Virus record (IMG/VR): IMGVR_UViG_3300046168_000050
DNA length: 64,000 nt
DNA from: a virus
Reading direction: 5' to 3' (one strand)
Shown here: positions 161-17,703 of the stretch, one piece after another
Numbering within the stretch: position 1 is the stretch's first letter
Layout of the letters: every line of letters begins with the position of its first letter
The notes under the pieces: model-generated
Database searches by the model: none
What the model saw: only the letters and a program-made list of their open reading frames with translations
Told to the model about the DNA's origin: nothing
Made by a program: the position numbers and the translations under genes

Positions 161-538
161 CTATTCTGAGGGAGGTGATACATCTGTAGGAGTTAAAGCT
201 TCTTCATAATATCCTATGATAGCCTGTGTATCTTTTATGTACCTACGCATCTCAGCAATACCTAACGCTAGATTTTCATATCCTTTTGGAGTAATTGCAA
301 AGAATACTACGTTACCAGTTTTAGCTTCGAGTTCTGCAATCTTTTCATCTAGATTTTCTTCAGTTACTACATACCAATCGACAGGAGGAAATTGTACTGC
401 CTTAGGTCTCTCTTGAAGAGGAACATTTTGTTTAGCGTATTCGGTTGAAACAACTACTTCTGTTTCGGGCGCTCTATTGCCCAGACACGCTGTCAGTAGA
501 AGCAGGCTCATCACTGGGAGGAGTAGTTTCGGCTTCAA
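161..538 (-). CDS. o-spanin-like outer-membrane lipoprotein (Rz1-like)
   Basis: Lipobox LLLLTAC followed by Pro-rich segment; overlaps 3' end of upstream i-spanin; start probably TTG 538 or ATG 511 rather than 595. Confidence 0.7.
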   Translation of the reverse strand: MKPKLLLPVMSLLLLTACLGNRAPETEVVVSTEYAKQNVPLQERPKAVQFPPVDWYVVTEENLDEKIAELEAKTGNVVFFAITPKGYENLALGIAEMRRYIKDTQAIIGYYEEALTPTDVSPPSE

Positions 539-893
539 TTTTTTGGAGTAATTTGCCAACGGCGTTGTCAACCCTATCTTCAAGTCCTTGTGCATTTGTT
601 AATGCCTCCATAGTCAAATCTATCTTAGCAAATACACCTCTAAGCTTGTCAAGGTGTTGCTGTGATTGTTGCAATCTTTTTGTTAAATCTTTATTCAGCT
701 GTTCATTCTTTTTTTGATCAGCTTGAATCTGTTCAATAGTAGCCTGTAAAGTTTCGGCTGTAGTTTTAAGCTTTACGTTATTTTCTCTAAGAGTATTTAT
801 AGTAGCTTCAGACCAGATATAATACTGGTATCCGCCATACCCCACTCCACTGAGTAAGCTTACTACGATTAATATTAAATATAATTTAGCCAT
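474..893 (-). CDS. i-spanin-like inner-membrane protein (Rz-like)
   Basis: N-terminal TM helix plus long coiled coil; paired with overlapping lipoprotein gene. Confidence 0.7.
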   Translation of the reverse strand: MAKLYLILIVVSLLSGVGYGGYQYYIWSEATINTLRENNVKLKTTAETLQATIEQIQADQKKNEQLNKDLTKRLQQSQQHLDKLRGVFAKIDLTMEALTNAQGLEDRVDNAVGKLLQKIEAETTPPSDEPASTDSVSGQ

Positions 894-3976: not shown

Positions 3977-4240
3977 CTAACAATTCCAGCGCCTACGTGC
4001 TGCTTTACCTCTTTCACCAGTCCAACTTTTTGATCTTGCACAAAACGATTTCCTACGACCAGCCGCCTTAGATCCCTTTTTTAGTTTACTGGGTTTAGTT
4101 GTAACAGCTGTTTGTAGTTTACTACCTGGATTCGCCCGTTTAAACGCATCGACGCCTTTCTGAGTCATACCAGCACCCTTGTCGGCTGAACGAAAGTGTC
4201 CTTTAGAATCTTTTTCTAAAAATGTTTTAAACTTATCCAC
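3977..4240 (-). CDS. small basic protein (DUF6321-like), CTS-like N-terminus
   Basis: NPGSKL...RRKSFCAR...ARRRWNC; N-term MDKFKTFLE. Confidence 0.7.
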   Translation of the reverse strand: MDKFKTFLEKDSKGHFRSADKGAGMTQKGVDAFKRANPGSKLQTAVTTKPSKLKKGSKAAGRRKSFCARSKSWTGERGKAARRRWNC

Positions 4241-4466
4241 CGAACTCGTGCCCCGCTACCCTACGCATTTGCTTGTTAAATTCAGATTGTGATGGCTTAG
4301 ATTTATATAGTTTAATAGAAATCTCAGGGCGTTCTTTACCTTTGATTCTCCAGTTATGGCCTTTTTCTTTATGATCAGCACTAGTAGTTTTAACAACACG
4401 ACGTTTGTATCCGGCCTCCCAGGACTCAGACTTTTTTTCTACCATAAACTGCTTAAAACTAATCAT
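4233..4466 (-). CDS. small basic protein, CTS-like N-terminus
   Basis: MISFKQFMVE; overlaps both neighbours. Confidence 0.65.
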   Translation of the reverse strand: MISFKQFMVEKKSESWEAGYKRRVVKTTSADHKEKGHNWRIKGKERPEISIKLYKSKPSQSEFNKQMRRVAGHEFGG

Positions 4467-5703
4467 TTGTTTTCTCTTTATTCAGCATTTTACGCAGCTT
4501 AAGAAGCTTCTCTTTATTGCTATCTGATACCTTTGCTACTTTAGTTGTAGCTTCTGATTTCATAGCATTTTTTACATGCCGCAGTTTTTGTTGATACTTA
4601 GCAATCTCTTGGTCAATAGACGGATTTTTTGCACCTTTTAATTTTTTAGTTTGAAGATCACCGATTTGTCTGCTAAAACTAGCATGCTTATCTTTTAATT
4701 TATTTGCCGGATGTTTAAGATAAGGATTCATGTCTTCTTCAACTGCCTCACCATAAGGTTTTTTAGTAACTGCTTTGCGAAACTGCTTGGCTCTCACGTT
4801 TGTAGCCATGTCCATACCTTTTTCGCGCCGGCGAATAACATCTTTTTCTTTTGAGATGTCTTTATTGCCTCTTACAATCTTTGCAGTTGCAGAGTTACGC
4901 GCACGATCACTTTGTGCTTTAGCTTTATTATGATACCTATCCATTGCTCCTGGAGTATCTAATACTTCATCAACTGATTCTTTTTTTCTTTTTATTCCTA
5001 CAGCGTGTATAGCACCCTTTAAACGGTTATTTGCTTTTCTTGTACCGCTGAAAGCATCATCACCCTTTGTTTTATCTAAATAAGATTGGGCGGTTTTTTT
5101 AGAAATTTCGTTAACTTCTTCTTTCATATCTTTAACTTTACCATTCTTTAAATGGCGCTTAATAGTTTTACCAGCTTTTGTTTGCATAGTTACAATATGA
5201 CCACCATCTGGGTGAGGCTTACTATTGATGATTTTCATTTTGTCACGCTGCCCGGCATAAGTATTAGCTTCATTTTTCTTTTGAGCCGCAATATATTCTT
5301 TTCTACTGCACCAATTTTCTCCGGCCATGTCATAAGCGTCGTACATGCAGCTTTCGTTTGTGGGCTTACCATACGTATCACCGCATGATTTACACACTTT
5401 TTCTTTCATAGAATAAGATTCATTCTTTGGAACACAATTAGGTACCATTTTGTTTCCCTTTTTCTTCATTCCAACTTGCTTATGGCTATCCCAACAAGCT
5501 TCATCTGTTTTTTTCTTAAAGGTTTCAAGACCTTTTTTACTACCAGCAGCCATTCTGTCAGCTTTATTAGCCTGAGTAGTTGCAATGCGCTTCATACCGC
5601 CTTCACTCTTAACTACTTCTTTATCTACAGGAACCATACGAATTTTAGGTTTTCCATCAGGTCCTACATATTTTTCAGGTTTTCTGTCTGCTGATTTTGT
5701 CAT
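4459..5703 (-). CDS. basic modular head protein
   Basis: EACWD..KQVGMKKKGNKMVPNCVPKNE module; repeated xNE/xDE/xEE junctions. Confidence 0.6.
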   Translation of the reverse strand: MTKSADRKPEKYVGPDGKPKIRMVPVDKEVVKSEGGMKRIATTQANKADRMAAGSKKGLETFKKKTDEACWDSHKQVGMKKKGNKMVPNCVPKNESYSMKEKVCKSCGDTYGKPTNESCMYDAYDMAGENWCSRKEYIAAQKKNEANTYAGQRDKMKIINSKPHPDGGHIVTMQTKAGKTIKRHLKNGKVKDMKEEVNEISKKTAQSYLDKTKGDDAFSGTRKANNRLKGAIHAVGIKRKKESVDEVLDTPGAMDRYHNKAKAQSDRARNSATAKIVRGNKDISKEKDVIRRREKGMDMATNVRAKQFRKAVTKKPYGEAVEEDMNPYLKHPANKLKDKHASFSRQIGDLQTKKLKGAKNPSIDQEIAKYQQKLRHVKNAMKSEATTKVAKVSDSNKEKLLKLRKMLNKEKTND

Positions 5704-7557: not shown

Positions 7558-8787
7558 TTAGTTCCTCGTTGGCTTATCCCATCCCTTTAATATATCTGGT
7601 GAAAAATTATTGTATGAAAATTCCATACGATCAATAATTTTTACCGCATCACCACCAAGTTTATCAATTGCTACATAACCTTCTTCACCGGTTACTTTAT
7701 AACCGTTACGAGTTTTAACGAAAGTATTGATTTTACTCAATTTATTAAGGTTATTTATAAGTTTTAATTTTGCTAAAACTATAACCTTTTGCAAATCAAA
7801 CATATACTTTAGGCTATCTTTATTACCTTGTGAGAAAAAACTAAGTATTTCATTTAGTTTTTTCTGTTGTGCCGACTTACCCTTTTCACTTTTACGTTTA
7901 TCTATTTCTTTCTGATACTTCTGACTAATCCACTTGATAAGTGCGGTGACATGTCTGTTGGTATCTCCAATGATTTGCCCTTGTCTGACATAGGAGTTAT
8001 TGAATTGCTCCACAAGCCTGGCAAGCTCTGTATTGGATTCCAGTTGTCGTAGAGTTGATCCGGCGATTTTATTGAATATAAACCCAGCTTGCGAAAGATA
8101 GTCGCTAACAATTTCGGTATCCTTTTTGCTCATAGTAACATTAGTTAAGTCTCTTAGCATTGCATCTTGAGACCATACACTTTTAACTGATTTTAGTTTT
8201 GAAACATCAACACCGTAAGAAGCTTTCATAGATTCAAAAGTATTACCCTTATAGGTTGTATGCCAGACAATACCAATTTTTGCAGATTTAACTGCTTCAG
8301 CTCCAGCCGATTTACTTGGCAATGCATAAACAATAGTATTCGGATGAAATGTTACATAAGATTCACTTTTTATCTTTTTCGTCTTGACATCTCCAGGGCC
8401 AAATAAAAAGTCTCCTTGTATTACACCTTTAATCCCTAAGGCTGGAAGGTGCTTAAGAGCCAGCTTAAGTTTAACTGCAAGATCACCAGAAGTGTCAGCG
8501 TCCACGTCAGCATTAGACTTATATACCTTAGGATTTTTATTGAAAATTCCTTTCTTAGCAACAAAGAAATTACCATCGCGGGGATCAGTGCCAGCAAAGA
8601 TGGCAGGTGCTCCGTCCCACTTAACACTGACAGATCCATCATGCACTCCTCTTAACATATCTCTCAATTCACGCAAAGCTAGAATAGCCTGCCTTGTACC
8701 CTTAACGCCGCCATAGATAACTTTATCCTCTATGTGCGTCATATGAGTATTTTTACTTTCTTTTATATATGATGTAAAGTTTTCCAT
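7558..8787 (-). CDS. ligase-fold nucleotidyltransferase (DUF6267-like)
   Basis: KNTHMTHIED; ligase-like motifs VKWDG (I), QGD (III), EGYV (IV), VKI (V); N-term MENFTSYIKE. Confidence 0.7.
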   Translation of the reverse strand: MENFTSYIKESKNTHMTHIEDKVIYGGVKGTRQAILALRELRDMLRGVHDGSVSVKWDGAPAIFAGTDPRDGNFFVAKKGIFNKNPKVYKSNADVDADTSGDLAVKLKLALKHLPALGIKGVIQGDFLFGPGDVKTKKIKSESYVTFHPNTIVYALPSKSAGAEAVKSAKIGIVWHTTYKGNTFESMKASYGVDVSKLKSVKSVWSQDAMLRDLTNVTMSKKDTEIVSDYLSQAGFIFNKIAGSTLRQLESNTELARLVEQFNNSYVRQGQIIGDTNRHVTALIKWISQKYQKEIDKRKSEKGKSAQQKKLNEILSFFSQGNKDSLKYMFDLQKVIVLAKLKLINNLNKLSKINTFVKTRNGYKVTGEEGYVAIDKLGGDAVKIIDRMEFSYNNFSPDILKGWDKPTRN

Positions 8788-8792
8788 TATTT

Positions 8793-9602
8793 TTAACCAA
8801 TTTTTATTTTAGGTTTAATTGTCCCTTGAGTAATAACATCTAAGTGGACATCACTTAATTTTGGTTTACCGACCATTACTACTTCTCCTATTTGAGAAGC
8901 CGGTGTTTTATTGACCATTAAGATAAGAGGGTTTTTAGCAAGATAGCCATGTGCTGCTTTTACATAAGGTGCTTCTACGTCTTTTTTCCACATAGGTGCC
9001 AGCTCATTGTCGCTTAAAATAGCTTTTATCTGGCTACCTGACACCCCGGCCTTTTCAGTTGCCAGCTTTTTAATTTCAGGTTTCATGTCGCGTAATCTAA
9101 GACCAGCGGAAACCATTTTATCGATAGGAACAGTACCGCCTAATTTAAAGTTCTTAAAAAATCCTTGACTTATATCACCAGCCTTTACTTCGTAAGGTTT
9201 ATTACCAATCACGATATCCGCGCCGGCAGATGCCCCACCACCTAGATGCGCGTCGTCTAATATAAAATATAGTGTAGCCTCTCCTGGACCAACGCCCTTT
9301 AGATTATAGCTGTGAAGAATTTTAAACTTATTTAAATTTTCTTTTTTTAGCATGCCTATAACATTGTTTAGCTTGCTAATGGTAGGTGTACCCTTTAAGG
9401 TTTTATCCAAGTCAAACTTAGGAAAGAAATGCATGCGAAACAAATATTGTATTTCAGCCTTATGCTTTAAATTAGTAAAATCATTAGGTGTTAAATTAAA
9501 CGATGTTATCTTCTGAGCGCGTTTTAAAAAATCAGTATCTAAATCTGCTACACTAACCATAGACATCTCCTGTAATGTATAATAATTTTTAAAGCGCCGC
9601 AT
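8793..9602 (-). CDS. putative PD-(D/E)xK nuclease-fold protein
   Basis: GVGPGE...GADI...YEVKA; N-term MRRFKNYYTLQE. Confidence 0.5.
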   Translation of the reverse strand: MRRFKNYYTLQEMSMVSVADLDTDFLKRAQKITSFNLTPNDFTNLKHKAEIQYLFRMHFFPKFDLDKTLKGTPTISKLNNVIGMLKKENLNKFKILHSYNLKGVGPGEATLYFILDDAHLGGGASAGADIVIGNKPYEVKAGDISQGFFKNFKLGGTVPIDKMVSAGLRLRDMKPEIKKLATEKAGVSGSQIKAILSDNELAPMWKKDVEAPYVKAAHGYLAKNPLILMVNKTPASQIGEVVMVGKPKLSDVHLDVITQGTIKPKIKIG

Positions 9603-9625
9603 AGTAGCTCCTATTATTTTGGTAC

Positions 9626-9633
9626 TATTTATA
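9626..9633 (-). promoter_or_regulatory. T4 late promoter TATAAATA
   Basis: Exact consensus ahead of AGGAG RBS of 9602 gene. Confidence 0.8.
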
Positions 9634-9637
9634 CAAT

Positions 9638-9661
9638 AAAAAAAGAGGCCTAAGCCTCTTT
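9638..9661 (-). terminator. rho-independent terminator
   Basis: AAGAGGC-TTAG-GCCTCTT followed by T run on minus strand. Confidence 0.8.
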
Positions 9662-9668
9662 AATTAAA

Positions 9669-9851
9669 TTACATGCGATCTATGTACAACTTATCCTTCT
9701 TTTTTACAACTTTATACTCATATTGGTTATAACCAGAGTCTATAAGATCTTGATTAAGATTGCTTACCCACTTTTCATATTCATCAACACGATCACCAGG
9801 TTCAAGAACCCCCAACAATGAGGGGTTCTTTTCATCATTTATAATTTTCAT
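9669..9851 (-). CDS. hypothetical protein
   Basis: ATGA overlap with upstream gene. Confidence 0.6.
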   Translation of the reverse strand: MKIINDEKNPSLLGVLEPGDRVDEYEKWVSNLNQDLIDSGYNQYEYKVVKKKDKLYIDRM

Positions 9852-10805
9852 GCTGCTGTTGCAAACTCTACCGCCTTGTTAGCGGCGTTAATCTTACGCC
9901 CTTGATTGTAACCAAACCACTGGTTATTCAACCGACTCTCTGAGCTACGACCTTGAATGTGGTCAGTCATATATGTTACAGAGTTAAATGCCTGCCACCA
10001 AGTTCCTTGACCGAACTCTGCACCAGGCTGAGTCTCAAGATTAGAAGCTGCTAGTTGAGCTGTGCGTGAGAGGTCCTCAAACGCCGACACAGTACGCTGC
10101 TCACGGTGTGGGAATACTTCATTGTAATACTGCATTAAAGATTCAGTATTAAAGCGACGAGTTGACAAGAATTCTGCCATCTCTTTGTACTGAGCAAACT
10201 TTTCAGAAGCAAGGCCCATTTGCTCTTTAACCATATCAGCATCGAATGTAGAGCGATGGCCAACTTTTACAAAGTTTTTAGACTTTGAGTTTAGAGAAAA
10301 TGTGAGCGTGTTATTGCATACAACACGAATGGGAGTAAAGCGAATATCAACAGCTTTACCATATTGGTGAGGATTGCTAAACAGTAAATAGGAGTCAACT
10401 TGGTCTTCGCCGAGAATAGTGAAAGACTCTTTGACTTTTGCGAGAGCGAATACATTTTTTCCATCCTTTAAAGATCCTGCTACATTCATTTCCATATCAC
10501 CGGCCATTACGAAATCTGAAAAGAATTCGAAAGCTTGTGTATTTTGTACTGGATTCCAGTCGTCACCGACCATATCTAAAACTGAACCGTCAGAAGAACG
10601 AACCAAAGCTTTTTTACCAGGAATTTTTACACCTGATACTGTTTGTACTTCTTCTTTTTCGACTGTCCCAATCAAGACCAGCTTTTTGCATCATCTGTTC
10701 GGGAGTCATGTCATTGCGTACTTCTACGCCAAGACCGTGCCAAGGTACATCGCCAACATACGCGAGTTGAGCTTGACCGTTAATCATTTCTACTTCGTGT
10801 GCCAT
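9848..10805 (-). CDS. DUF932 (TIGR03299-like) protein, split by one extra base at ~10668
   Basis: MAHEVE...PWHGLG...AGLDW joins TVEKEEV...TPIRVVCNNT after removing one G. Confidence 0.8.
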
Positions 10806-10840
10806 AATATAATTCCTTCATTTCACCATTTGATATGTAT

Positions 10841-10869
10841 ATACTAACATATTACAAGCGGTTTGTACA
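10841..10869 (-). promoter_or_regulatory. early promoter TGTACA-17-TAGTAT
   Basis: Motif recurs with exact 17 bp spacing at several intergenic sites. Confidence 0.75.
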
Positions 10870-10888
10870 CAGTTAATTTAGCATTTAG

Positions 10889-11050
10889 CTAACTTTTTTT
10901 AGTTAATTTCCATCCGCCTATTTCAGTTTCTTCCCAGATAATTGTATCGCCCACAGATAAATCTAATTTATCCATAATTTCATCTGGGATCTCAAACCCT
11001 AGTTCGCCGTCACCAGTATCTACAATAGGCACATTCCAAATTTTATTCAT
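10889..11050 (-). CDS. AbrB/MazE/SpoVT-like DNA-binding protein (53 aa, not in ORF track)
   Basis: MNKIWNVPIVDTGDGELGFEIPDEIMDKLDLSVGDTIIWEE; AGGA RBS. Confidence 0.65.
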   Translation of the reverse strand: MNKIWNVPIVDTGDGELGFEIPDEIMDKLDLSVGDTIIWEETEIGGWKLTKKS

Positions 11051-11123
11051 TATATTTCCTTTTTTTCATTTTGTTAGCACTAACATTTTATACATAGGTT
11101 TATTCAACATAGGAGTCTGCTAC

Positions 11124-11342
11124 ATGTGTTCACCTTTCGTGCGAAAAGAAGCTAATCGTTTAAACTGGCTAATAAAAGGTCATCTTATTAATATAAATGA
11201 AAGTGATAAGACAGTCGAAAGGATTTATAATAGCTACATAGAAAGATTATGGAACAACACCGAAAGAAACGAGTACGGACTAATTGGATTTGAGGCAGCC
11301 TATAAAAGGCGAGAAGCTGAAATTTATTCTTCTATGACATAG
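11124..11342 (+). CDS. hypothetical protein
   Basis: AGGAG RBS; fills gap between minus-strand genes. Confidence 0.6.
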   Translation: MCSPFVRKEANRLNWLIKGHLININESDKTVERIYNSYIERLWNNTERNEYGLIGFEAAYKRREAEIYSSMT

Positions 11343-11581
11343 GTGGTATCAGTACCGCTTTGAGTAATTACTGAGCTAAATTCAGCCGCTGCCCATGTCA
11401 TAACTAAAATACCTACAAGCCCGATAGCTACCCATTTCATTTTCATATCATCGACAATCATTTTGATGCCAATCATTTCATTTCCTAAAACACGAAATTG
11501 CAATTCCATTTTACCTTCTGGCGTATCTTCGTCTCTAATTGCATGAGGTGCTTTAACTTTAACTTTTTCTTCTTCGGCCAT
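11324..11581 (-). CDS. small membrane protein
   Basis: Single TM WVAIGLVGILVMTWAAA; AGGAG RBS. Confidence 0.65.
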   Translation of the reverse strand: MAEEEKVKVKAPHAIRDEDTPEGKMELQFRVLGNEMIGIKMIVDDMKMKWVAIGLVGILVMTWAAAEFSSVITQSGTDTTYVIEE

Positions 11582-11590
11582 TGTTGTCTC

Positions 11591-12145
11591 CTAGTTGTTT
11601 AAAGGATTATCGAGAGCTTCTTGTAACGTCTCTCTTATGTCGTCGTCTAGTTTATCCATTTTAGCGTCAAGGTCTTTGATCGTCTCTTTCATTACATTAC
11701 GAACATCTTTCTCAGATGCTCTTACAGTGGCTTCAACTTCTCGAATAGAAGAGGTTACATCTTTACTTTGTTCATTTAAATCTTTACGCACTCCGGCAAG
11801 CGTTGATTCGATAGATGCCTGAGTATCTTTCATTCTATTCTCAGCATCATCAACCTTATCTTCCATTCTTTCAATATTTTCTTCGAGCTTAAAGATATCA
11901 TCTTTTAATCCCGATTTAATATCTCTTGTATATTCAATAGCTTCATCTAGCTTAGTCTCAATCACATCATTACGGGCAGCGATTGCATCAGTATCGATGT
12001 TCTGAATAATCTCTTTCATATCCATATAGTCTTTATAGATTTCAAACCCACCCCAAGCTGCGCCGCCTAATGTCGACAGTGCAGTAAGAAGCGCGACCAT
12101 CTTACCGCCAGAAAATTTTAATCCACCAAATTCTACTTCAGCCAT
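11591..12145 (-). CDS. membrane-anchored coiled-coil protein
   Basis: N-terminal TM then long heptad region. Confidence 0.7.
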   Translation of the reverse strand: MAEVEFGGLKFSGGKMVALLTALSTLGGAAWGGFEIYKDYMDMKEIIQNIDTDAIAARNDVIETKLDEAIEYTRDIKSGLKDDIFKLEENIERMEDKVDDAENRMKDTQASIESTLAGVRKDLNEQSKDVTSSIREVEATVRASEKDVRNVMKETIKDLDAKMDKLDDDIRETLQEALDNPLNN

Positions 12146-12147
12146 TT

Positions 12148-12552
12148 TTAATCCTCAAACTGTAATTCCCTAAGCTGCTGCAATTCTTTTTCTAGCTTGC
12201 GAACTTCTAGTTGCTTCTTTCTTAATTCTAACTCGTATAATCTATTACAATCAATGCGTGATTTGACTCTTTTGCCTAGCGGAATAGTTATTCTTGCATA
12301 AACACCTACATCTGTTTCTGTATCAGTATTATAGTCATAAACCGGATCGTACTCACCCTTGTCTATTAATCCTGTTACACCAAACTCTAAATTAGTAGCA
12401 GAGCCAATGGCATTAGAACAATCTAAATCGCCTGTACGAAACTTATCAGACTGGTAATTACCAGGAACACTAGGCAAGGCAAGATTTAATGAAGTAGACT
12501 CAGCAAAAGCCGTGCCACATATTACCGTTAACATTAGTGGTAGAAATCTCAT
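12148..12552 (-). CDS. exported protein (beta-hairpin plus coiled-coil)
   Basis: Signal peptide AFA; Cys pair; GVYARITIPLG. Confidence 0.65.
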   Translation of the reverse strand: MRFLPLMLTVICGTAFAESTSLNLALPSVPGNYQSDKFRTGDLDCSNAIGSATNLEFGVTGLIDKGEYDPVYDYNTDTETDVGVYARITIPLGKRVKSRIDCNRLYELELRKKQLEVRKLEKELQQLRELQFED

Positions 12553-12560
12553 AGTTCATC

Positions 12561-12938
12561 TCACTTTACCTTCGAACAGATCCTTGATTTAATACCTGTT
12601 GACTGTACATCTTGTTTTAATTGTTTAGATGTGGTACATATATATTTTATTCTATTCAAATCACTATCTCTGACGTAAAGATCGAATGTTGTTCTACCCA
12701 AGTATGCTATTTGTAATATTTTATTTTCAGACGCAAAAGCTACTGGTTTCCATTCTTCATCAAATACTCCGATTTCATAATATAATACATCCTCTCTTCT
12801 ATTCCACATCTTCATTTGAGTCACAGAGACGTCTTCTATATACGAAGGTCTCATCTTTGGATAAGTTGGCGTTAATTCGTGAGCAGTAGCATTTGTATAA
12901 ATCAATGCTACTGCAATTGCATAATATATATATTTCAT
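12561..12938 (-). CDS. exported Ig-fold, PapD-like chaperone candidate
   Basis: Signal peptide ATA; LTPT, alternating beta pattern, ICT...RICS. Confidence 0.45.
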   Translation of the reverse strand: MKYIYYAIAVALIYTNATAHELTPTYPKMRPSYIEDVSVTQMKMWNRREDVLYYEIGVFDEEWKPVAFASENKILQIAYLGRTTFDLYVRDSDLNRIKYICTTSKQLKQDVQSTGIKSRICSKVK

Positions 12939-13438
12939 TATTTTGCGACACACTCCGCTACAACACTAGCTTTGTACTCACCGCCAGGCAGTGCTTTAGC
13001 TGACCCATACTTAGCTTCTGACTCAATTTTAAACCAGGTTGATCCTGCAAGTGTTAAACCAAATTCTGTATGGTTTTCATACTCAACCTTAGCCGCTTCG
13101 TAAGCTGACATTCCTGATACAGAATGGCTAGCCACTGTTGTCTCCCCATCCCAATTTACTGCATCCGAAAGACTAGGTGATGACGTAAATGAATTCGGCC
13201 ATGAAATCTTTGCTTTGTATTTGTCTGCGACCGTAACATCATAGCGGACGATAGGATCCACGCCACCATCAGCCGCCTTTGTACTTAATTCGTCTGGTGT
13301 AGGGTTACCATAAACACCTGGCGTATCCGTAAAAATTGAACACTTGGATGATATATTACCGGTAATAGGTGTCTCATTGGCAAAGGCCGCTGTCGACATC
13401 AAACCTATAGCACCCAAGGTAAAGATTGATTTGAACAT
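12938..13438 (-). CDS. exported pilin-like subunit
   Basis: Signal peptide AFA; ITGNISSKC N-term strand; C-terminal LPGGEYKASVVAEC. Confidence 0.5.
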   Translation of the reverse strand: MFKSIFTLGAIGLMSTAAFANETPITGNISSKCSIFTDTPGVYGNPTPDELSTKAADGGVDPIVRYDVTVADKYKAKISWPNSFTSSPSLSDAVNWDGETTVASHSVSGMSAYEAAKVEYENHTEFGLTLAGSTWFKIESEAKYGSAKALPGGEYKASVVAECVAK

Positions 13439-13447
13439 TAACTTCTC

Positions 13448-14356
13448 CTACTGTTCTCTGTCGTATTGCGAGCGTACCATTTTTCTATGGTTAGCGTCAG
13501 ATGCTAGATTTCTCATCGCTCTAGGGTTATCAGGTAAAGTTGTATCTTCAAGTTTTAATGCATCTTTATATTCACCACCTGGTATATCTATTATATAATA
13601 ATTCTCTATTTTCGGTGTTTGTGCTAGTGCAGCTAGCATTCTTGTCTGCGCTTCTACATCAACAAGATCACCTATACTATTTTCTCCTCCAAGATCTTTC
13701 TCAAAATTTGAAAGATTCTCTTCTGGCTCTTCTGCTTGTTCTTCCTGCTCAGCCTGCTCAGCCTCATCGTTAATAGATAAGTTCGCCTGAATCCATTCAT
13801 CATAAAATGGATCGCCTGGTAAAAGATCACTAAGACTTGCAAGATACTTTGCCAGTGCTTCTTTAAACCCCGGACAAGAAGGGTCAGCGAGAGGAGATGC
13901 CGCGCATAGCATTAGCTGCTCATCAATATCCATCTTGTAATTATATGTAACCGACTGATTAACTACTTGGCCATCGCCTTCTACGTCAATTGATCCATTT
14001 CCCCATTTAGTAGAATCAGTGTACGGAAATCTAAAAAACTTTGTTATATTTCCACCAGGAATTCCAGACCAATCATCTTTCTCTTCAAATACATATCCCC
14101 CATCAGGATTAACGTTTCTTACATAGACCACTGCATCCGTTTCAAGATCTTTAATCATGGTATATCTATAGTTTAGACCGTTTACCTGTACTGTAATATA
14201 TGAAGAAGTAGCGTCTGGTAGCACGGGTCCCATGCTCCAGGTCAATCCAGCTATAGCCGCATTCGGTGTCACTCCATAGGTAGTATCAGAGTAACAGCAA
14301 GAGGAGAAGGCCACCGACAGCAGCGCCGCCAATGGTAGTTGATTTCTCATCGTCAT
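13448..14356 (-). CDS. exported protein
   Basis: N-terminal signal-like segment; beta-rich domain; C..PL.DPSCPG; acidic tail. Confidence 0.65.
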   Translation of the reverse strand: MTMRNQLPLAALLSVAFSSCCYSDTTYGVTPNAAIAGLTWSMGPVLPDATSSYITVQVNGLNYRYTMIKDLETDAVVYVRNVNPDGGYVFEEKDDWSGIPGGNITKFFRFPYTDSTKWGNGSIDVEGDGQVVNQSVTYNYKMDIDEQLMLCAASPLADPSCPGFKEALAKYLASLSDLLPGDPFYDEWIQANLSINDEAEQAEQEEQAEEPEENLSNFEKDLGGENSIGDLVDVEAQTRMLAALAQTPKIENYYIIDIPGGEYKDALKLEDTTLPDNPRAMRNLASDANHRKMVRSQYDREQ

Positions 14357-14891
14357 CCATATCCTTTAGTGGGTTGAAAGATCCAGTATCTTCATCTGGC
14401 TGTTTCTCTTCATTTGCCAACCATGCGGCTTTTGCCTCAGGGCCAATCATTCCATCATAAGGACAGGGTGTGCCGGCATCCATCATTGCGTCAAATACTC
14501 TTTCGTCTTGACACATGACTGATACTGCAGCCACTTTCATTCCCATATCGTAGAGAACTTTTGCGTTCTTTAATTTTTCACAATTCATATCACGAACCGT
14601 TTTACCAGCTGACATGCCAAGAATTTGAGTTTGAACTGCGCCAGATACTCCTACTGTACATAAATCTGAGTTAGAAGAATTTATTGATGGCGCAATTGCA
14701 GAAGGGGGCGGTGATTCTACTTTTGTGGTAGAATTAGATTGACTAGATACTGTGCTATCGGTTTCATTTTTTGTGCACACATATCCATCAGGACAGTCAG
14801 CATCTTCAGAAAAAGACATAGTGCCAATAAATATGACAACTATTGCCGCTACAAGCAGTTCCACTATTTTTTTGTACATACTATACCCCAT
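14286..14891 (-). CDS. exported Cys-rich protein with C-terminal hydrophobic anchor
   Basis: Signal peptide; PPPSAIAP..DLC..GVSGAVQ..G.S.G....D.NCE; ends GGLLLLLLL. Confidence 0.7.
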   Translation of the reverse strand: MGYSMYKKIVELLVAAIVVIFIGTMSFSEDADCPDGYVCTKNETDSTVSSQSNSTTKVESPPPSAIAPSINSSNSDLCTVGVSGAVQTQILGMSAGKTVRDMNCEKLKNAKVLYDMGMKVAAVSVMCQDERVFDAMMDAGTPCPYDGMIGPEAKAAWLANEEKQPDEDTGSFNPLKDMDDDEKSTTIGGAAVGGLLLLLLL

Positions 14892-14906
14892 AATGTGAAT
14901 CAGCTG

Positions 14907-14914
14907 TATTTATA
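14907..14914 (-). promoter_or_regulatory. T4 late promoter TATAAATA
   Basis: Exact consensus heading the exported-protein operon. Confidence 0.75.
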
Positions 14915-14918
14915 ATAA

Positions 14919-15092
14919 TTAAGTTTTTACGCAAATTGCTTGTTGACCGTTAAGAAAATGACCAGACACACCGCTTAATTCAGCCCCAAGATTTTCTCTG
15001 GCTTTAAAACATTCTACCATGTCTTTATGTACACTGTGCTTTTCTACATAAGGATGTGTGTCATACATATAAACAAACAATAATATCCACAT
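14919..15092 (-). CDS. small hypothetical protein (57 aa, not in ORF track)
   Basis: MWILLFVYMYD...ECFKARE...QQAICVKT; TAATG coupling. Confidence 0.6.
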   Translation of the reverse strand: MWILLFVYMYDTHPYVEKHSVHKDMVECFKARENLGAELSGVSGHFLNGQQAICVKT

Positions 15093-15439
15093 TACAAGTC
15101 TTCTTTCTTTTCATCCCATGGTTGACGGCCCGCATAAGGTACCCACTCAGCACCAGCAATAATCAGGCATGACATTGGAGGTTTGTCTTCATTTGGAAAA
15201 GATAAAACAAAGGCTAGCGTGCCAGTGTCTTGGTTTAAAAATATTTGAGCGGCTGACGTAAAGGTTCTTCCATCTTTAGAAGCAATCGTTCCGGTACCTT
15301 GGAGAAGTAATGCATTCTTATATTGCAGCATTATTCTCATTACTTCAGGAGCCGGATCGCACGGTACATTTATCTGTAACATGTCTGCATGCGCAGATGT
15401 ACTAGTAACTAGCCCTAAGGCTAATAATAATTTTTTCAT
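15092..15439 (-). CDS. exported hypothetical protein
   Basis: Signal peptide AHA; Cys pair. Confidence 0.65.
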   Translation of the reverse strand: MKKLLLALGLVTSTSAHADMLQINVPCDPAPEVMRIMLQYKNALLLQGTGTIASKDGRTFTSAAQIFLNQDTGTLAFVLSFPNEDKPPMSCLIIAGAEWVPYAGRQPWDEKKEDL

Positions 15440-15457
15440 AGTATATCCCTTCTTAAT

Positions 15458-15485
15458 AAAAAAAGGGGGCTAACCATGGCCCCCT
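15458..15485 (-). terminator. rho-independent terminator
   Basis: AGGGGGCC..GCCCCCT plus T run. Confidence 0.8.
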
Positions 15486-15521
15486 GCGCACTTATTAAGT
15501 AGTGACCCTTGTAGGTATTTA

Positions 15522-15914
15522 TCAGAAGTTAAAAGTAGCACCTACTTTTGAGCTTATTGCGTCTTCTGCATCGATATCCCAGGTTGTTTCACCAAACAAC
15601 TCAAGCCCGCCAAACAACTCATATGTTGCACCAAGATTGATCTTTGGATTATCAAATGCTTTATCTAATTTAAACTCTTCGTTGTTATATACCGGCAAAT
15701 CCATGTCTGCAGTGAGACCTACACCAAACATTGTGTATCCGACTTCAGGCGTTACCTTTACGCCAAAATCTTCTACGTCGGCGCCGGTCGCGTCATTGAT
15801 TGTGTACGCTGCTTCTGTTTCTACACCCCAAGTAATACCCGTTGCTCCAATCTCGTTTGCTGAGACTGATGTTGCCGTTACAAGAGCGGCCGCTGCGATT
15901 GCTGCAAATTTCAT
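15522..15914 (-). CDS. outer-membrane beta-barrel protein
   Basis: Signal peptide MKFAAIAAAALVTATSVSA; amphipathic strands; C-terminal KVGATFNF beta-signal. Confidence 0.7.
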   Translation of the reverse strand: MKFAAIAAAALVTATSVSANEIGATGITWGVETEAAYTINDATGADVEDFGVKVTPEVGYTMFGVGLTADMDLPVYNNEEFKLDKAFDNPKINLGATYELFGGLELFGETTWDIDAEDAISSKVGATFNF

Positions 15915-15949
15915 TTTTTTTAGTTCCCTTTTAAAATTATCATGATAAG

Positions 15950-16167
15950 CTGCCACGTTTTCTGTTGCTAGGTAAGTGGCCAACCCCCTGTGTTATGCAG
16001 CTAGTGCGTAACCAGATGGTGCAAAATTATCGTTTGCATTTGTGTTTTGTAAACTAGAATACATGTCGATCCTAAATTTCTGCCCCATCAGAAATACATC
16101 TTATGTACTTGTGGTGGAGCAGCGCGGTACTGCCCCGCGGTCCATACATCCGTTATTAACGCTTACA
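15950..16167 (-). ncRNA. ssrA: two-piece (circularly permuted) tmRNA
   Basis: T-arm CGCGG-GGCAGTA-CCGCG, CTGCTCC-A-CCA ending 16112; intervening segment; GGGGCAG 5' end at 16086; tag ANDNFAPSGYALAA* at 16037-15993; outer ends approximate. Confidence 0.93.
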
Positions 16168-16173
16168 ACTTAT

Positions 16174-16202
16174 ATATTAACATGTGTTTTAAATACTGTA
16201 CA
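16174..16202 (-). promoter_or_regulatory. promoter TGTACA-17-TAATAT for tmRNA
   Basis: Same motif and spacing as other early promoters. Confidence 0.7.
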
Positions 16203-16271
16203 TGCTCCATCACAATCTTTCTTGAGTGTGATATAATTAGCACATAGCCATCCGGATCGTATGCAATCCAT

Positions 16272-16550
16272 TTATATTTCTTCTTCGCTATCGTGAATGT
16301 AGAGTTGGATGAGGGCATAGTGGAGAACTTTCATTAAATCCTTTCGAGCATCAGCCCGAGTGCCTTTTTTACCATAACGATTCGAATACTTATCAACATT
16401 TCCCATACAAAAGCCTGTACCATGGCCTCTTGCAATAATTACTTCTGTTGATTGGAACTTATTAGTTGCATAATGCCCATCATATGTAGCATCAATATAA
16501 TTTTTAAATTCTGCTATCAATTCACCTTCATTAAATTTATAATTAATCAT
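16272..16550 (-). CDS. DUF3310-like protein
   Basis: YIDATY..HY...GFCMGNVDKY..RYGKKG...DLMKVLHY. Confidence 0.7.
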   Translation of the reverse strand: MINYKFNEGELIAEFKNYIDATYDGHYATNKFQSTEVIIARGHGTGFCMGNVDKYSNRYGKKGTRADARKDLMKVLHYALIQLYIHDSEEEI

Positions 16551-17033
16551 TTATTCGTCCCAAACTCCATCCCATGTATAAAATACGTGTTTATCAATTA
16601 CCTTGCTTACTTCCATCTGATCAGCCCAAGACGGATTTACATACGTTGCGTGATAAAAAGTAGCACCTTCAGAAGGATCATCTACGTTTCCTATCATCAC
16701 GTCGCGCGCAATGACTTTAGCCTGACCCCATGCTTTTTTTTCAGAAGGAGTTTGATCTTTAATCATAAACGTCCAGCTAAATTGCTTAGGCTGATATACG
16801 ACGTCACAAATATTATTCGGCCATTGTGCGTGTTCCACGCGATTTAGTGTAACATGCGCAACTGCGATCTGGCCTTCTACGACTTCACCCCGAGCCTCGT
16901 GATAAATGTTCATAGCCAAGCATTCATGGCTTTTAGCATCTATCTCGGGGTGCATCATAGTCAGAGTTACTGCTACTGCTGCTAGTCCTGACATGGTTAA
17001 TAATCCACTTGCTATATTGACTGCTCTTGACAT
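16551..17033 (-). CDS. SleB-like cell wall hydrolase (Hydrolase_2) with N-terminal TM
   Basis: CLAMNIYHEARGE...VAHVTLNR...QFSW...YHATYVNPSW...HVFY. Confidence 0.88.
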   Translation of the reverse strand: MSRAVNIASGLLTMSGLAAVAVTLTMMHPEIDAKSHECLAMNIYHEARGEVVEGQIAVAHVTLNRVEHAQWPNNICDVVYQPKQFSWTFMIKDQTPSEKKAWGQAKVIARDVMIGNVDDPSEGATFYHATYVNPSWADQMEVSKVIDKHVFYTWDGVWDE

Positions 17034-17037
17034 TGGA

Positions 17038-17045
17038 TATTTATA
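17038..17045 (-). promoter_or_regulatory. T4 late promoter TATAAATA
   Basis: Exact consensus 4 nt before the hydrolase ATG. Confidence 0.65.
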
Positions 17046-17071
17046 AACCTAATACTCTATATGATTTACCT

Positions 17072-17302
17072 TTATGCAGCATTAGCGGATTCCTCCATTT
17101 TAATTTCAGTCATCCAAATATCATGTTCAACTTCCATATCAGCTTCTATACGCTCAATATTTTGCTGAAGATCATCTACAATGTCAAGCAGTTCAATTAA
17201 AACAGTGGCACGGCTATGACCAAAATTATGAGAACGACGAACGATGCTCATCAATTTCTTTCTCATCATTATTGCATCTTGAATATCATTTACCATAATC
17301 AT
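17072..17302 (-). CDS. hypothetical early protein
   Basis: TAATG coupling to upstream gene. Confidence 0.6.
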   Translation of the reverse strand: MIMVNDIQDAIMMRKKLMSIVRRSHNFGHSRATVLIELLDIVDDLQQNIERIEADMEVEHDIWMTEIKMEESANAA

Positions 17303-17703
17303 TACGCTACTTCCTCCATTTTGTAAATTAAATTAGCTGCTGACATTTCAGGCTTAAATCCGATTGCAACAAAACCATAGTTAGCTACAACCATTACATT
17401 ACCTTCTACATCAACGATGATATCACCGACTGAAAGTGAAGACATACGTGAGAAACGTGTAATCGCTGACTCAGGGCCAATGTTCCCGATTTCAAAGCAA
17501 TGCTCAGGAGTTTCAGCACGAATATCAGAAACATGAGTATAAAGGCCATCTGTGAGAGCTTGATCAGCAATACCAGAAATGTTATTACCGCTGAAATCAA
17601 AGTTCATCTCAGTTTTAGCTTCGCGCTTAGCATTAGTTTCGCCAGCGTTGATAGCTTCGATATCTGTGTCAGAGTATTGAATTTGCCAAACTGTAAAAAT
17701 CAT
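17302..17703 (-). CDS. hypothetical early protein
   Basis: AGGAG RBS; SLSVGDIIV motif; directly after early promoter. Confidence 0.7.
   Translation of the reverse strand: MIFTVWQIQYSDTDIEAINAGETNAKREAKTEMNFDFSGNNISGIADQALTDGLYTHVSDIRAETPEHCFEIGNIGPESAITRFSRMSSLSVGDIIVDVEGNVMVVANYGFVAIGFKPEMSAANLIYKMEEVA

Follow-up and report, generated by a model that had tools for sequence, protein, structure and literature searches.

Organization of the module

The DNA analysed here, hereafter the window, is a 64-kb stretch (64,000 nucleotides) from a marine T4-like myophage (IMG/VR record IMGVR_UViG_3300046168_000050), in which PHROG profiles matched the portal, major head protein and scaffold, and also a gp43-type DNA polymerase, a gp41-type helicase and a gp46-type nuclease. 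Seven minus-strand open reading frames (ORFs), named A to G, fill positions 11324-14891 and are the subject of this analysis. It is firmly supported that they form a conserved, exported multi-protein module, the core of which consists of a PapD-fold domain (protein D), an immunoglobulin-like (Ig-like) subunit (protein C) and a small hairpin/coiled-coil protein (protein E). The features of the locus, with lengths in nucleotides (nt) or amino acids (aa), are as follows:

14907-14914, minus strand: TATAAATA, T4-type late-promoter-like motif, 16 nt upstream of A
14286-14891, minus strand: A, 201 aa
13448-14356, minus strand: B, 302 aa
12938-13438, minus strand: C, 166 aa
12561-12938, minus strand: D, 125 aa (coordinates from ATG; the listed ORF begins at GTG 12953)
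12148-12552, minus strand: E, 134 aa
11591-12145, minus strand: F, 184 aa
11324-11581, minus strand: G, 85 aa

The gaps between successive genes from A to G are -71, 9, -1, 8, 2 and 9 nt. The first-pass annotation of this DNA had described a compact unit of seven exported or membrane genes behind a late-type promoter motif, and both the coordinates and the position of TATAAATA bear this out. TATAAATA occurs 15 times in the window, no more often than chance would give (10.5 +/- 3.4 in shuffled sequences); the coding strand holds 14 of the 15 copies, and several stand immediately before gene starts.

The longest overlap in the module, 71 nt between A and B (14286-14356, minus strand), means that the Leu-rich tail of A and the signal peptide of B share the same DNA in two frames. 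A comparable overlap (approximately 40-70 nt, from tblastn and ORF coordinates) was seen in most of the related loci.

Export signals and cysteines

Signal peptides were judged by a heuristic based on N-terminal charge, a hydrophobic core and small residues at -1/-3. By this measure all five proteins A-E have signal-peptide-like N-termini (mean Kyte-Doolittle value of the hydrophobic core 2.2-3.6), as do 17-21 of the 19-23 distinct homologues per family, and the sites are of the signal peptidase I type. The first 22 residues of A-E are only 20-33% identical, compared with a mean column identity of 60-67% over the whole proteins, and such variable N-termini on conserved proteins are typical of cleaved signal peptides. 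F and G possess one membrane segment each, so that the earlier claim of a signal peptide or a transmembrane segment in all seven products holds.

Exactly one invariant Cys pair is kept in each of C, D and E, as is expected of proteins folding in the periplasm. A lipobox scan of the module gave a single match, at the N-terminus of B (SSC). Several relatives have no Cys there, and we ruled out B as a lipoprotein since this residue is not conserved. The possibility that the module proteins are structural components of the virion was likewise dropped, on account of the conserved signal peptides and disulfide pairs.

The PapD-like protein D

D is an exported single-domain protein with a PapD-like/MSP fold, the AlphaFold2 (AF2) model of which has a predicted local distance difference test (pLDDT) value of 81, and above 90 in the core. 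Foldseek paired this model with PapD, Caf1M, FaeE, DraB, SafB, FimC and SfaE and with MSP domains (E values 1e-3 to 9e-3, probability 1.0). In an independent all-against-all VIA-align search the Z scores were 9.2 for FimC (94 residues, 2.9 A), 9.0 for SafB, 8.7 for YadV, 8.3 for CfaA and PapD, and 7.7 for CsuC. When the top 1000 Foldseek matches were re-aligned, 88 PDB chains reached Z>=8. Approximately three quarters of the top 50 entries are chaperones of chaperone-usher systems, with all classes represented (classical, FGL, archaic, alternate). Residues 23-125 of the D model align to chaperone residues 5-114, i.e. to the whole N-terminal domain from strand A1 to G1 (Z 8.2-9.4). The model thus agrees with the first-pass annotation, in which 12561-12938 was read as a single Ig domain of the chaperone type.

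The second chaperone domain (PapD_C) is missing from D, which ends at the G1-equivalent strand; its homologues, sought among proteins of 67-219 aa, are 121-139 aa long. Hhalign of D against pilins and of C against chaperones, run as cross-controls, was negative. A BFVD search with D returned only uncharacterised phage proteins, among them the homologues from phages Ceto and Eowyn.

A conserved Cys101-Cys121 pair and the invariant residues E55, W63 and Y54 characterize the D family. Its last strand keeps a Lys or Arg (C-S-K-V-K, and C-A-K-V-R in the Vibrio phages; compared by eye with chaperone Lys112). The mature N-terminus, H-E-L-T-P-T-Y-P, is modelled as disordered and is nevertheless invariant in all 36 aligned sequences. 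His20, encoded at window positions 12879-12881, might be a binding motif or a metal site. A His is also the first mature residue of the D homologues from an Erwinia phage and from a GC-rich metagenome contig (L038), and it is not found in those of the Vibrio phages.

These features bring to mind a different kind of protein. D might be a periplasmic metal- or ligand-binding Ig-like protein with a histidine brace, as in CopC, YcnI and PCuAC, in which case the gene cluster would encode unrelated exported proteins and no common machine. Besides the invariant octapeptide, the N-terminal His of the Erwinia and L038 homologues and the invariant E55, W63 and Y54, this idea can draw on weak fold matches of D to PCuAC, an only-Cu SOD and an LPMO module, and on a weak match of C to YcnI (Z 5.5). 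However, the N-terminal His is absent from the Vibrio-phage homologues, the chaperone matches of D are far more numerous and higher-scoring than the cupredoxin-like ones, and the finding that C, D and E strictly co-occur and are syntenic in unrelated phages (see below) argues for one machine. We consider this alternative very unlikely.

The Ig-like subunit C

C is an exported Ig-like protein, modelled as an eight-stranded beta-sandwich (AF2 model pLDDT 73, with residues 1-29 disordered). Two motifs mark the family, I-x-G-x-V-x-S-x-C near the N-terminus and PGGEYxAxVxAxC at the C-terminus, and Cys33 and Cys163 are invariant. The pilin motifs quoted in the first-pass annotation, PITGNISSKCSI and GGEYKASVVAEC, are present in C and nearly invariant.

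The best Foldseek matches of the C model are pilin domains of chaperone-usher systems, i.e. the PapG pilin domain (E value 1e-3), HdaB, PapA, FimG, CfaB and CsuA/B, with template modelling (TM) scores of 0.33-0.53. When C was compared with 14 E. coli pilins by hhalign, the alignment was limited to the signal peptide plus the 'I-x-G-x-V...C-x-I' motif (probability 53%), and C had no Pfam match, be it to Fimbrial (PF00419) or SCPU (PF05229). The earlier reading of C as a fimbrial pilin is thus weakly supported: the hallmark motifs are there and pilins head the Foldseek results, but the TM scores are low and chaperone-usher pilins are not among the best VIA-align matches.

Proteins A, B, E, F and G

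E contains two amphipathic beta-strand-like segments bracketed by the invariant Cys45 and Cys102, followed by a heptad-like, charged C-terminal helix. The acidic loop between the two dyad-patterned strands varies more than any other part of the protein and is rich in indels, as would be expected if it were exposed at the surface. E matches phrog_37374 (unknown function), and an Atlas search with E recovered only its own viral hypothetical clusters.

A consists of a signal peptide, an S/T-rich linker, a four-Cys domain (residues ~76-184) and a conserved C-terminal hydrophobic tail (TTIGGAAVGGLLLLLLL), and it matches phrog_20531 (unknown function). Proteins of Pelagibacter, Roseobacter and Ralstonia phages share 34-57% identity with the Cys domain, which stands alone there, near lysozyme or tail-fibre genes. 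Neither A nor E gave a PDB or Pfam lead. The layout that A and E had been said to share (Cys...Cys, then a helix) can be seen by eye, but a profile-profile comparison found no similarity, so that homology between the two is unsupported.

B, the largest protein of the module, has a beta-rich N-terminal half, a Cys-x9-CPG loop, an acidic linker and a conserved C-terminus ending in ...NLASDANHxxMVRSQY. PDB and Pfam provided no lead for B, an Atlas search with a B homologue gave nothing above 0.79, and profile-profile comparisons of B with C and with E. coli pilins were negative.

In F a conserved, uncleaved, Gly-rich N-terminal membrane segment precedes an acidic, coiled-coil-like domain of variable length (152-231 aa in relatives), in agreement with its earlier description as a membrane-anchored coiled coil. 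G has one hydrophobic segment (residues 48-65), and its place relative to F varies among relatives.

Conservation of the module

A scan of IMG/VR with C yielded 32 loci (identity 35-100%), and the order A-B-C-D-E was found in every locus holding the region, which settles in the affirmative the question of gene-order conservation that the first-pass annotation had raised. F and G come after A-B-C-D-E in these loci, in varying order and spacing. The module is under strong purifying selection. Its flanks in close relatives contain genes for an endolysin, tmRNA (transfer-messenger RNA) and a DUF932 protein, and in other related loci genes for an esterase, a bilin-reductase-like protein and a nucleotidase. 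As the flanking genes differ among loci, the module moves as a unit inside a variable region. After the module on a related 183-kb phage contig (L009) come an esterase/lipase-like gene and one of ferredoxin-dependent bilin-reductase type (phrog_7278), at 8376-9104 and 10596-11285.

In a set of 5.8 billion metagenome proteins, the homologues formed 1218 (C), 1657 (D) and 599 (B) clusters at 90% identity, and neither Pfam domains nor informative names were attached to any of them. When 1.84 billion representatives were searched exhaustively with the C profile, only 115 matched, including a few remote full-length relatives. A pattern scan of 185,579 prokaryote species genomes, which detects close relatives only, found C encoded on just 4 short contigs in bins of metagenome-assembled genomes, and none of the 4 offered a bacterial context with an usher. 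To judge from these sequence searches, the C family appears confined to phages.

Megablast of the region and tblastn of C (E value <= 0.01) against 50,697 phage records gave no match, which means that the isolates of phage Melnitz and the pelagimyophages have no close C homologue (B, D and E were not sought there specifically).

Pfam (E value <= 0.1) and NCBIfam scans assigned none of the seven proteins to a family, F having only compositional coiled-coil matches. Pfam also gave no match for the remote homologues from Vibrio phages and pelagiphages, and profile searches of A, B, C, D and E against PDB sequences returned nothing below an E value of 0.4. PHROG has no match for B, and the families that A, C, D and E match there are all without known function. 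Literature searches, too, recovered no description, so the earlier remark that no function has been described for such a module still applies.

The C-D-E trio in other phages

Relatives of E were found by tblastn in 204 phage records with the E of the window as query (E value <= 1) and in 186 records with the E of Vibrio phage Ceto (E value <= 0.01); the hosts of these phages include Vibrio, Erwinia, Klebsiella and Serratia. In the T5-like phage Ceto itself (locus L033), three overlapping ORFs (4190-4660, 4645-5052 and 4968-5345) are homologues of C, D and E, in this order, as determined by hhalign for C (probability 90%, E value 2e-6) and D (probability 84%, E value 8e-6) and by tblastn for E (8e-8). 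The trio lies directly upstream of genes for a putative holin and an M15 peptidase.

In the public record of Ceto, the place of the 125-aa E-like ORF (MG649966.1, 90806-91183) is taken by three short hypothetical genes, gp146-148, and the D-like ORF is only partly annotated. It looks like the record mis-annotates the overlapping E-like and D-like genes.

In two other groups of Vibrio siphophages, represented by 51E28.4 (ORFs) and D60 (annotated genes), this trio comes after a homologous protein of ~800 aa. No annotation or family match was found for this large protein, which we take, from its position only, for a tail-fibre or receptor-binding protein. In Erwinia phage pEp_SNUABM_01 (Vequintavirinae) the order is D-E-C. 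On the GC-rich metagenome contig L038, C- and D-like genes come directly after a lysozyme gene and a textbook Rz with embedded Rz1, and another metagenome contig carries an E-like, a C-like and a second C-like gene adjoining a trpA-like gene. The evolutionary core of the module is C, D and E, to which the marine T4-like phages add A, B and the membrane proteins F and G.

Relation to chaperone-usher systems

The module resembles the chaperone-usher systems (Fim, Pap, Caf1, Csu, CFA/I) in that a gene for a Sec-exported, disulfide-bonded Ig-like subunit adjoins a gene for a PapD-fold protein, and in that C has a type-1-pilin-like N-terminal motif and a C-terminal G-x-Y-x-A-x-V. The differences are considerable. 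The module has neither an usher (PF00577, ~800 aa; its own largest protein has 302 aa) nor a second chaperone domain in D; C and D match none of the Pfam families Fimbrial, SCPU, PapD_N and PapD_C; the disulfide of C joins the first and last strands, whereas classical pilins join strands A and B; the additional partners E, A, B, F and G have no counterpart in those systems; and the module is encoded not by bacteria but by phages, mostly of lytic types. With regard to the usher, tblastn of five E. coli ushers gave only noise in the window (E values >= 0.35) and nothing at E value <= 0.1 in the 32 related loci, in line with the first-pass annotation, which had listed none.

A true usher-less pilus, as read in the first-pass annotation, is a rival explanation. 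C would polymerise by donor-strand exchange via its I-x-G-x-V segment, D would cap it in the periplasm, and an oligomer of E would form the outer-membrane pore for the growing fibre. In addition to the chaperone fold of D and the pilins at the top of the Foldseek results for C, this explanation is favoured by the 12-residue, low-confidence N-terminal segment of C, which has alternating conserved residues and an invariant Gly and aligns with the donor-strand region of type 1 pilins. The architecture of E, with its two dyad-patterned strands, indel-rich loop and coiled coil, fits as well, and the curli secretion module of related phages is a precedent for fibre export (PMC9004378). On the other hand, the sole disulfide of C, Cys33-Cys163, may close the groove that a donor strand needs, no chaperone-usher pilins occur among the best 50 VIA-align matches of C, and an export pore made of one-hairpin subunits is unprecedented for pilins. 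We therefore regard such a pilus as unlikely, and we do not think that the module is a classical adhesive pilus.

Relation to curli modules of related phages

The major capsid protein of the window is 59-65% identical to those of phage C48C1, Methylophilales phage Melnitz and Pelagibacter phages HTVC008M and Mosig, and Melnitz, HTVC008M and Mosig (59-61%) are the closest cultured relatives. Melnitz and the pelagimyophages carry a curli CsgGF module of unknown role that the host lacks; the proposals for it are sibling capture, uptake and lysis timing (PMC9004378). In the Melnitz record (MZ577097.1, 50118-56876), CsgF, CsgG, two curlin-repeat proteins, a FecR-domain protein and an adenylate/guanylate-cyclase-domain protein are annotated, near genes for a cell-wall hydrolase, tmRNA and thyX. 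Genes 97 and 98 of Melnitz, located just upstream of the annotated curli genes, encode small proteins with a transmembrane segment plus a coiled coil, a layout reminiscent of F.

Like our module, the curli module of Melnitz, HTVC008M and Mosig is exported, is of the outer-membrane fibre-secretion type and has a similar neighbourhood with a cell-wall hydrolase and tmRNA. The two are not related in sequence, however, and their fold types differ. Of the Melnitz genes 96-104, used as tblastn queries against the window, only the cell-wall hydrolase was matched, and a Pfam scan of ten proteins found no Csg family. This phage group thus contains two distinct exported modules of the outer-membrane fibre type.

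Relation to exclusion and lysis proteins

Small exported phage proteins that act at the envelope are also known from superinfection exclusion, e.g. Llp of T5, Cor of phi80/T1, and Imm and Sp of T4. Llp and Cor are single lipoproteins, whereas the module comprises three to seven genes and shows no lipobox in relatives. Furthermore, llp, imm and sp are early genes, while the module lies behind a late-promoter motif. In T5, llp adjoins the receptor-binding gene, which is comparable to the position of the trio after the tail-fibre-like gene of the Vibrio siphophages.

Another comparison concerns the two-component spanins (Rz/Rz1). F has the layout of an i-spanin, and E is a small exported coiled-coil protein which might sit at the outer membrane; by analogy, F and E together could bridge the envelope. 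Unlike an o-spanin, E is not a lipoprotein, and the lipobox scan found no embedded or adjacent conserved lipoprotein gene in the module. On contig L038, moreover, the C- and D-like genes come after a complete Rz/Rz1 pair. The window contains its own candidate lysis genes:

161-595, minus strand: o-spanin-like lipoprotein ORF with an LLTAC lipobox, ~105 aa when mature, overlapping the i-spanin-like ORF
474-893, minus strand: i-spanin-like ORF, N-terminal transmembrane domain followed by a coiled coil
16551-17033: cell-wall hydrolase of SleB type (PHROG profile) with an N-terminal hydrophobic segment, i.e. a signal-arrest-release (SAR) type endolysin

Judged by their sequence features, the ORFs 161-595 and 474-893 are a canonical overlapped two-component spanin pair (161-893, minus strand), by which F as an i-spanin was ruled out. 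With its own spanin pair and SAR endolysin elsewhere in the window, the phage does not use the module as its spanin.

The module might still be an accessory to lysis, either in envelope sensing and timing (antiholin, lysis inhibition) or by helping the endolysin and spanins to break the outer membrane. It starts ~1.7 kb downstream of the SAR-type hydrolase and has a late-promoter motif in front, and lysis genes also adjoin its relatives, namely the putative holin and M15 peptidase beside the Ceto trio, the lysozyme and Rz/Rz1 genes before the C- and D-like genes of L038, and the lysozyme genes beside A-domain proteins in pelagiphages and a Roseobacter phage. A role in lysis timing has, in addition, been proposed for the curli pore of Melnitz (PMC9004378). 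Nevertheless, the phage already has an endolysin and a canonical i-/o-spanin pair, the neighbours in other loci are unrelated to lysis (the esterase, bilin-reductase-like and nucleotidase genes), and the folds of the module are those of no known lysis protein. The position is a weak argument as well, for slots after lysis or tail-fibre genes are also classic for accessory 'moron' genes. A lysis-associated function appears quite unlikely to us.

Proposed role of the module

The module is a phage-borne envelope system of the chaperone/subunit type and of a new form, without described function. We suggest that it is Sec-exported and gives rise to a surface or periplasmic assembly which remodels the envelope of the infected cell, the best guess for its purpose being receptor masking or adsorption control; we would give this proposal an even chance of being correct. 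Late in infection, the proteins would cross the inner membrane and gain one conserved disulfide each. D would hold C in the periplasm through beta-strand complementation, the mode of action of PapD-like domains. E would oligomerise via its helix and place its amphipathic hairpin at the outer membrane, where it would serve as an anchor or a small conduit, and F, G and the tail of A would fasten the assembly to the inner membrane. The resulting protein assembly, on the surface or in the periplasm, would alter the envelope of the infected cell and might hide receptors, or control in some other way the adsorption and entry of phages at this cell and its debris. Receptor masking or exclusion is favoured by the position of the genes beside large tail-fibre-like genes and lysis genes, which are typical slots of accessory genes.

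Several observations weigh against this proposal. The PapD-like fold also occurs in proteins that are not chaperones, and since with D a GH2 accessory domain scores slightly higher (Z 9.8) than the chaperones and MSP domains score equally, the fold of D alone is no proof of chaperone function. D also lacks sequence similarity to PapD_N (PF00345), with no Pfam match at E value <= 0.1 and an hhalign probability of 0.4% against six E. coli chaperone N-domains, and chaperone Arg8 appears as Tyr in the clade of D (by eye, L-T-P-T-Y-P compared with L-S-P-T-R-V in the L038 homologue). The fold assignment of C is generic, as VIA-align gives Z <= 7.3 and prefers MSCRAMM-type and Gram-positive pilin domains. 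The case for receptor masking is weak, resting on gene position only, and among the Vibrio phages conservation is higher in the trio (44-67%) than in the adjoining large gene (26-34%), contrary to the prediction from co-diversification with a receptor-binding protein.

A bolder version can also be conceived, in which unrelated phages share a minimal, usher-less fibre or surface-layer system. D would deliver C to an outer-membrane ring of E hairpins, and a structure made by the phage would be displayed on the infected cell before lysis. In the marine T4-like phages, A, F and G would link this structure to the inner membrane, and it would replace the curli module of their relatives. Only a small chance can be given to this idea.

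The module is abundant in seawater metagenomes (~600-1650 clusters per protein), and its core is common to unrelated phage lineages. If the proposed pairing of a PapD-fold protein with an Ig-like subunit in the absence of an usher is true, it would represent a new, very small version of the best-studied bacterial logic of fibre assembly, used here by viruses on cells that are about to be killed. Alongside the curli CsgGF of Melnitz and the pelagimyophages, it suggests repeated acquisition of outer-membrane modules for fibres or secretion by marine T4-like phages, so that possible roles in exclusion, adhesion or 'sibling capture', and lysis timing become testable. The Vibrio-phage trios occur in culturable phage-host pairs.

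Neighbouring features of the window

DNA nearly identical to the window was found in many seawater metagenomes. The region upstream of A contains the following features:

14919-15092 and 15092-15439, minus strand: two small genes outside the conserved module, the second encoding a signal-peptide protein of 115 aa
15485-15464: strong intrinsic terminator, 7-bp stem with 6 GC pairs, then a T-run
15522-15914, minus strand: gene for a small exported protein resembling an outer membrane protein (OMP)
15951-16197, minus strand: alpha-proteobacterial-type, permuted, two-piece tmRNA (Rfam RF01849, 67.6 bits; RF04321, 76.4 bits)

The genes at 14919-15092 and 15092-15439 occur only in the closest relatives. 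The tmRNA overlaps the TTG start of the ORF listed as 15522-15983, and the ATG at 15914 is therefore the likelier start. The product of 15522-15914 shows alternating beta-strand patterns and a C-terminal ...ATFNF resembling an outer-membrane beta-barrel signal; this OMP-like protein, too, was seen only in the closest relatives of the phage. The terminator, located after its gene, divides the upstream unit of tmRNA and OMP-like gene from the region of the module.

Contigs from RNA libraries were found over 9000-17500. They indicate presence only, because transcription, strand and 5' ends are not readable from contigs and DNA carry-over is possible. Two oligo-dT RNA-seq runs span the whole of this interval and two rRNA-depleted metatranscriptomes cover parts of it, the deepest piece being that at 11113-11625, which covers gene G and sequence downstream of it.

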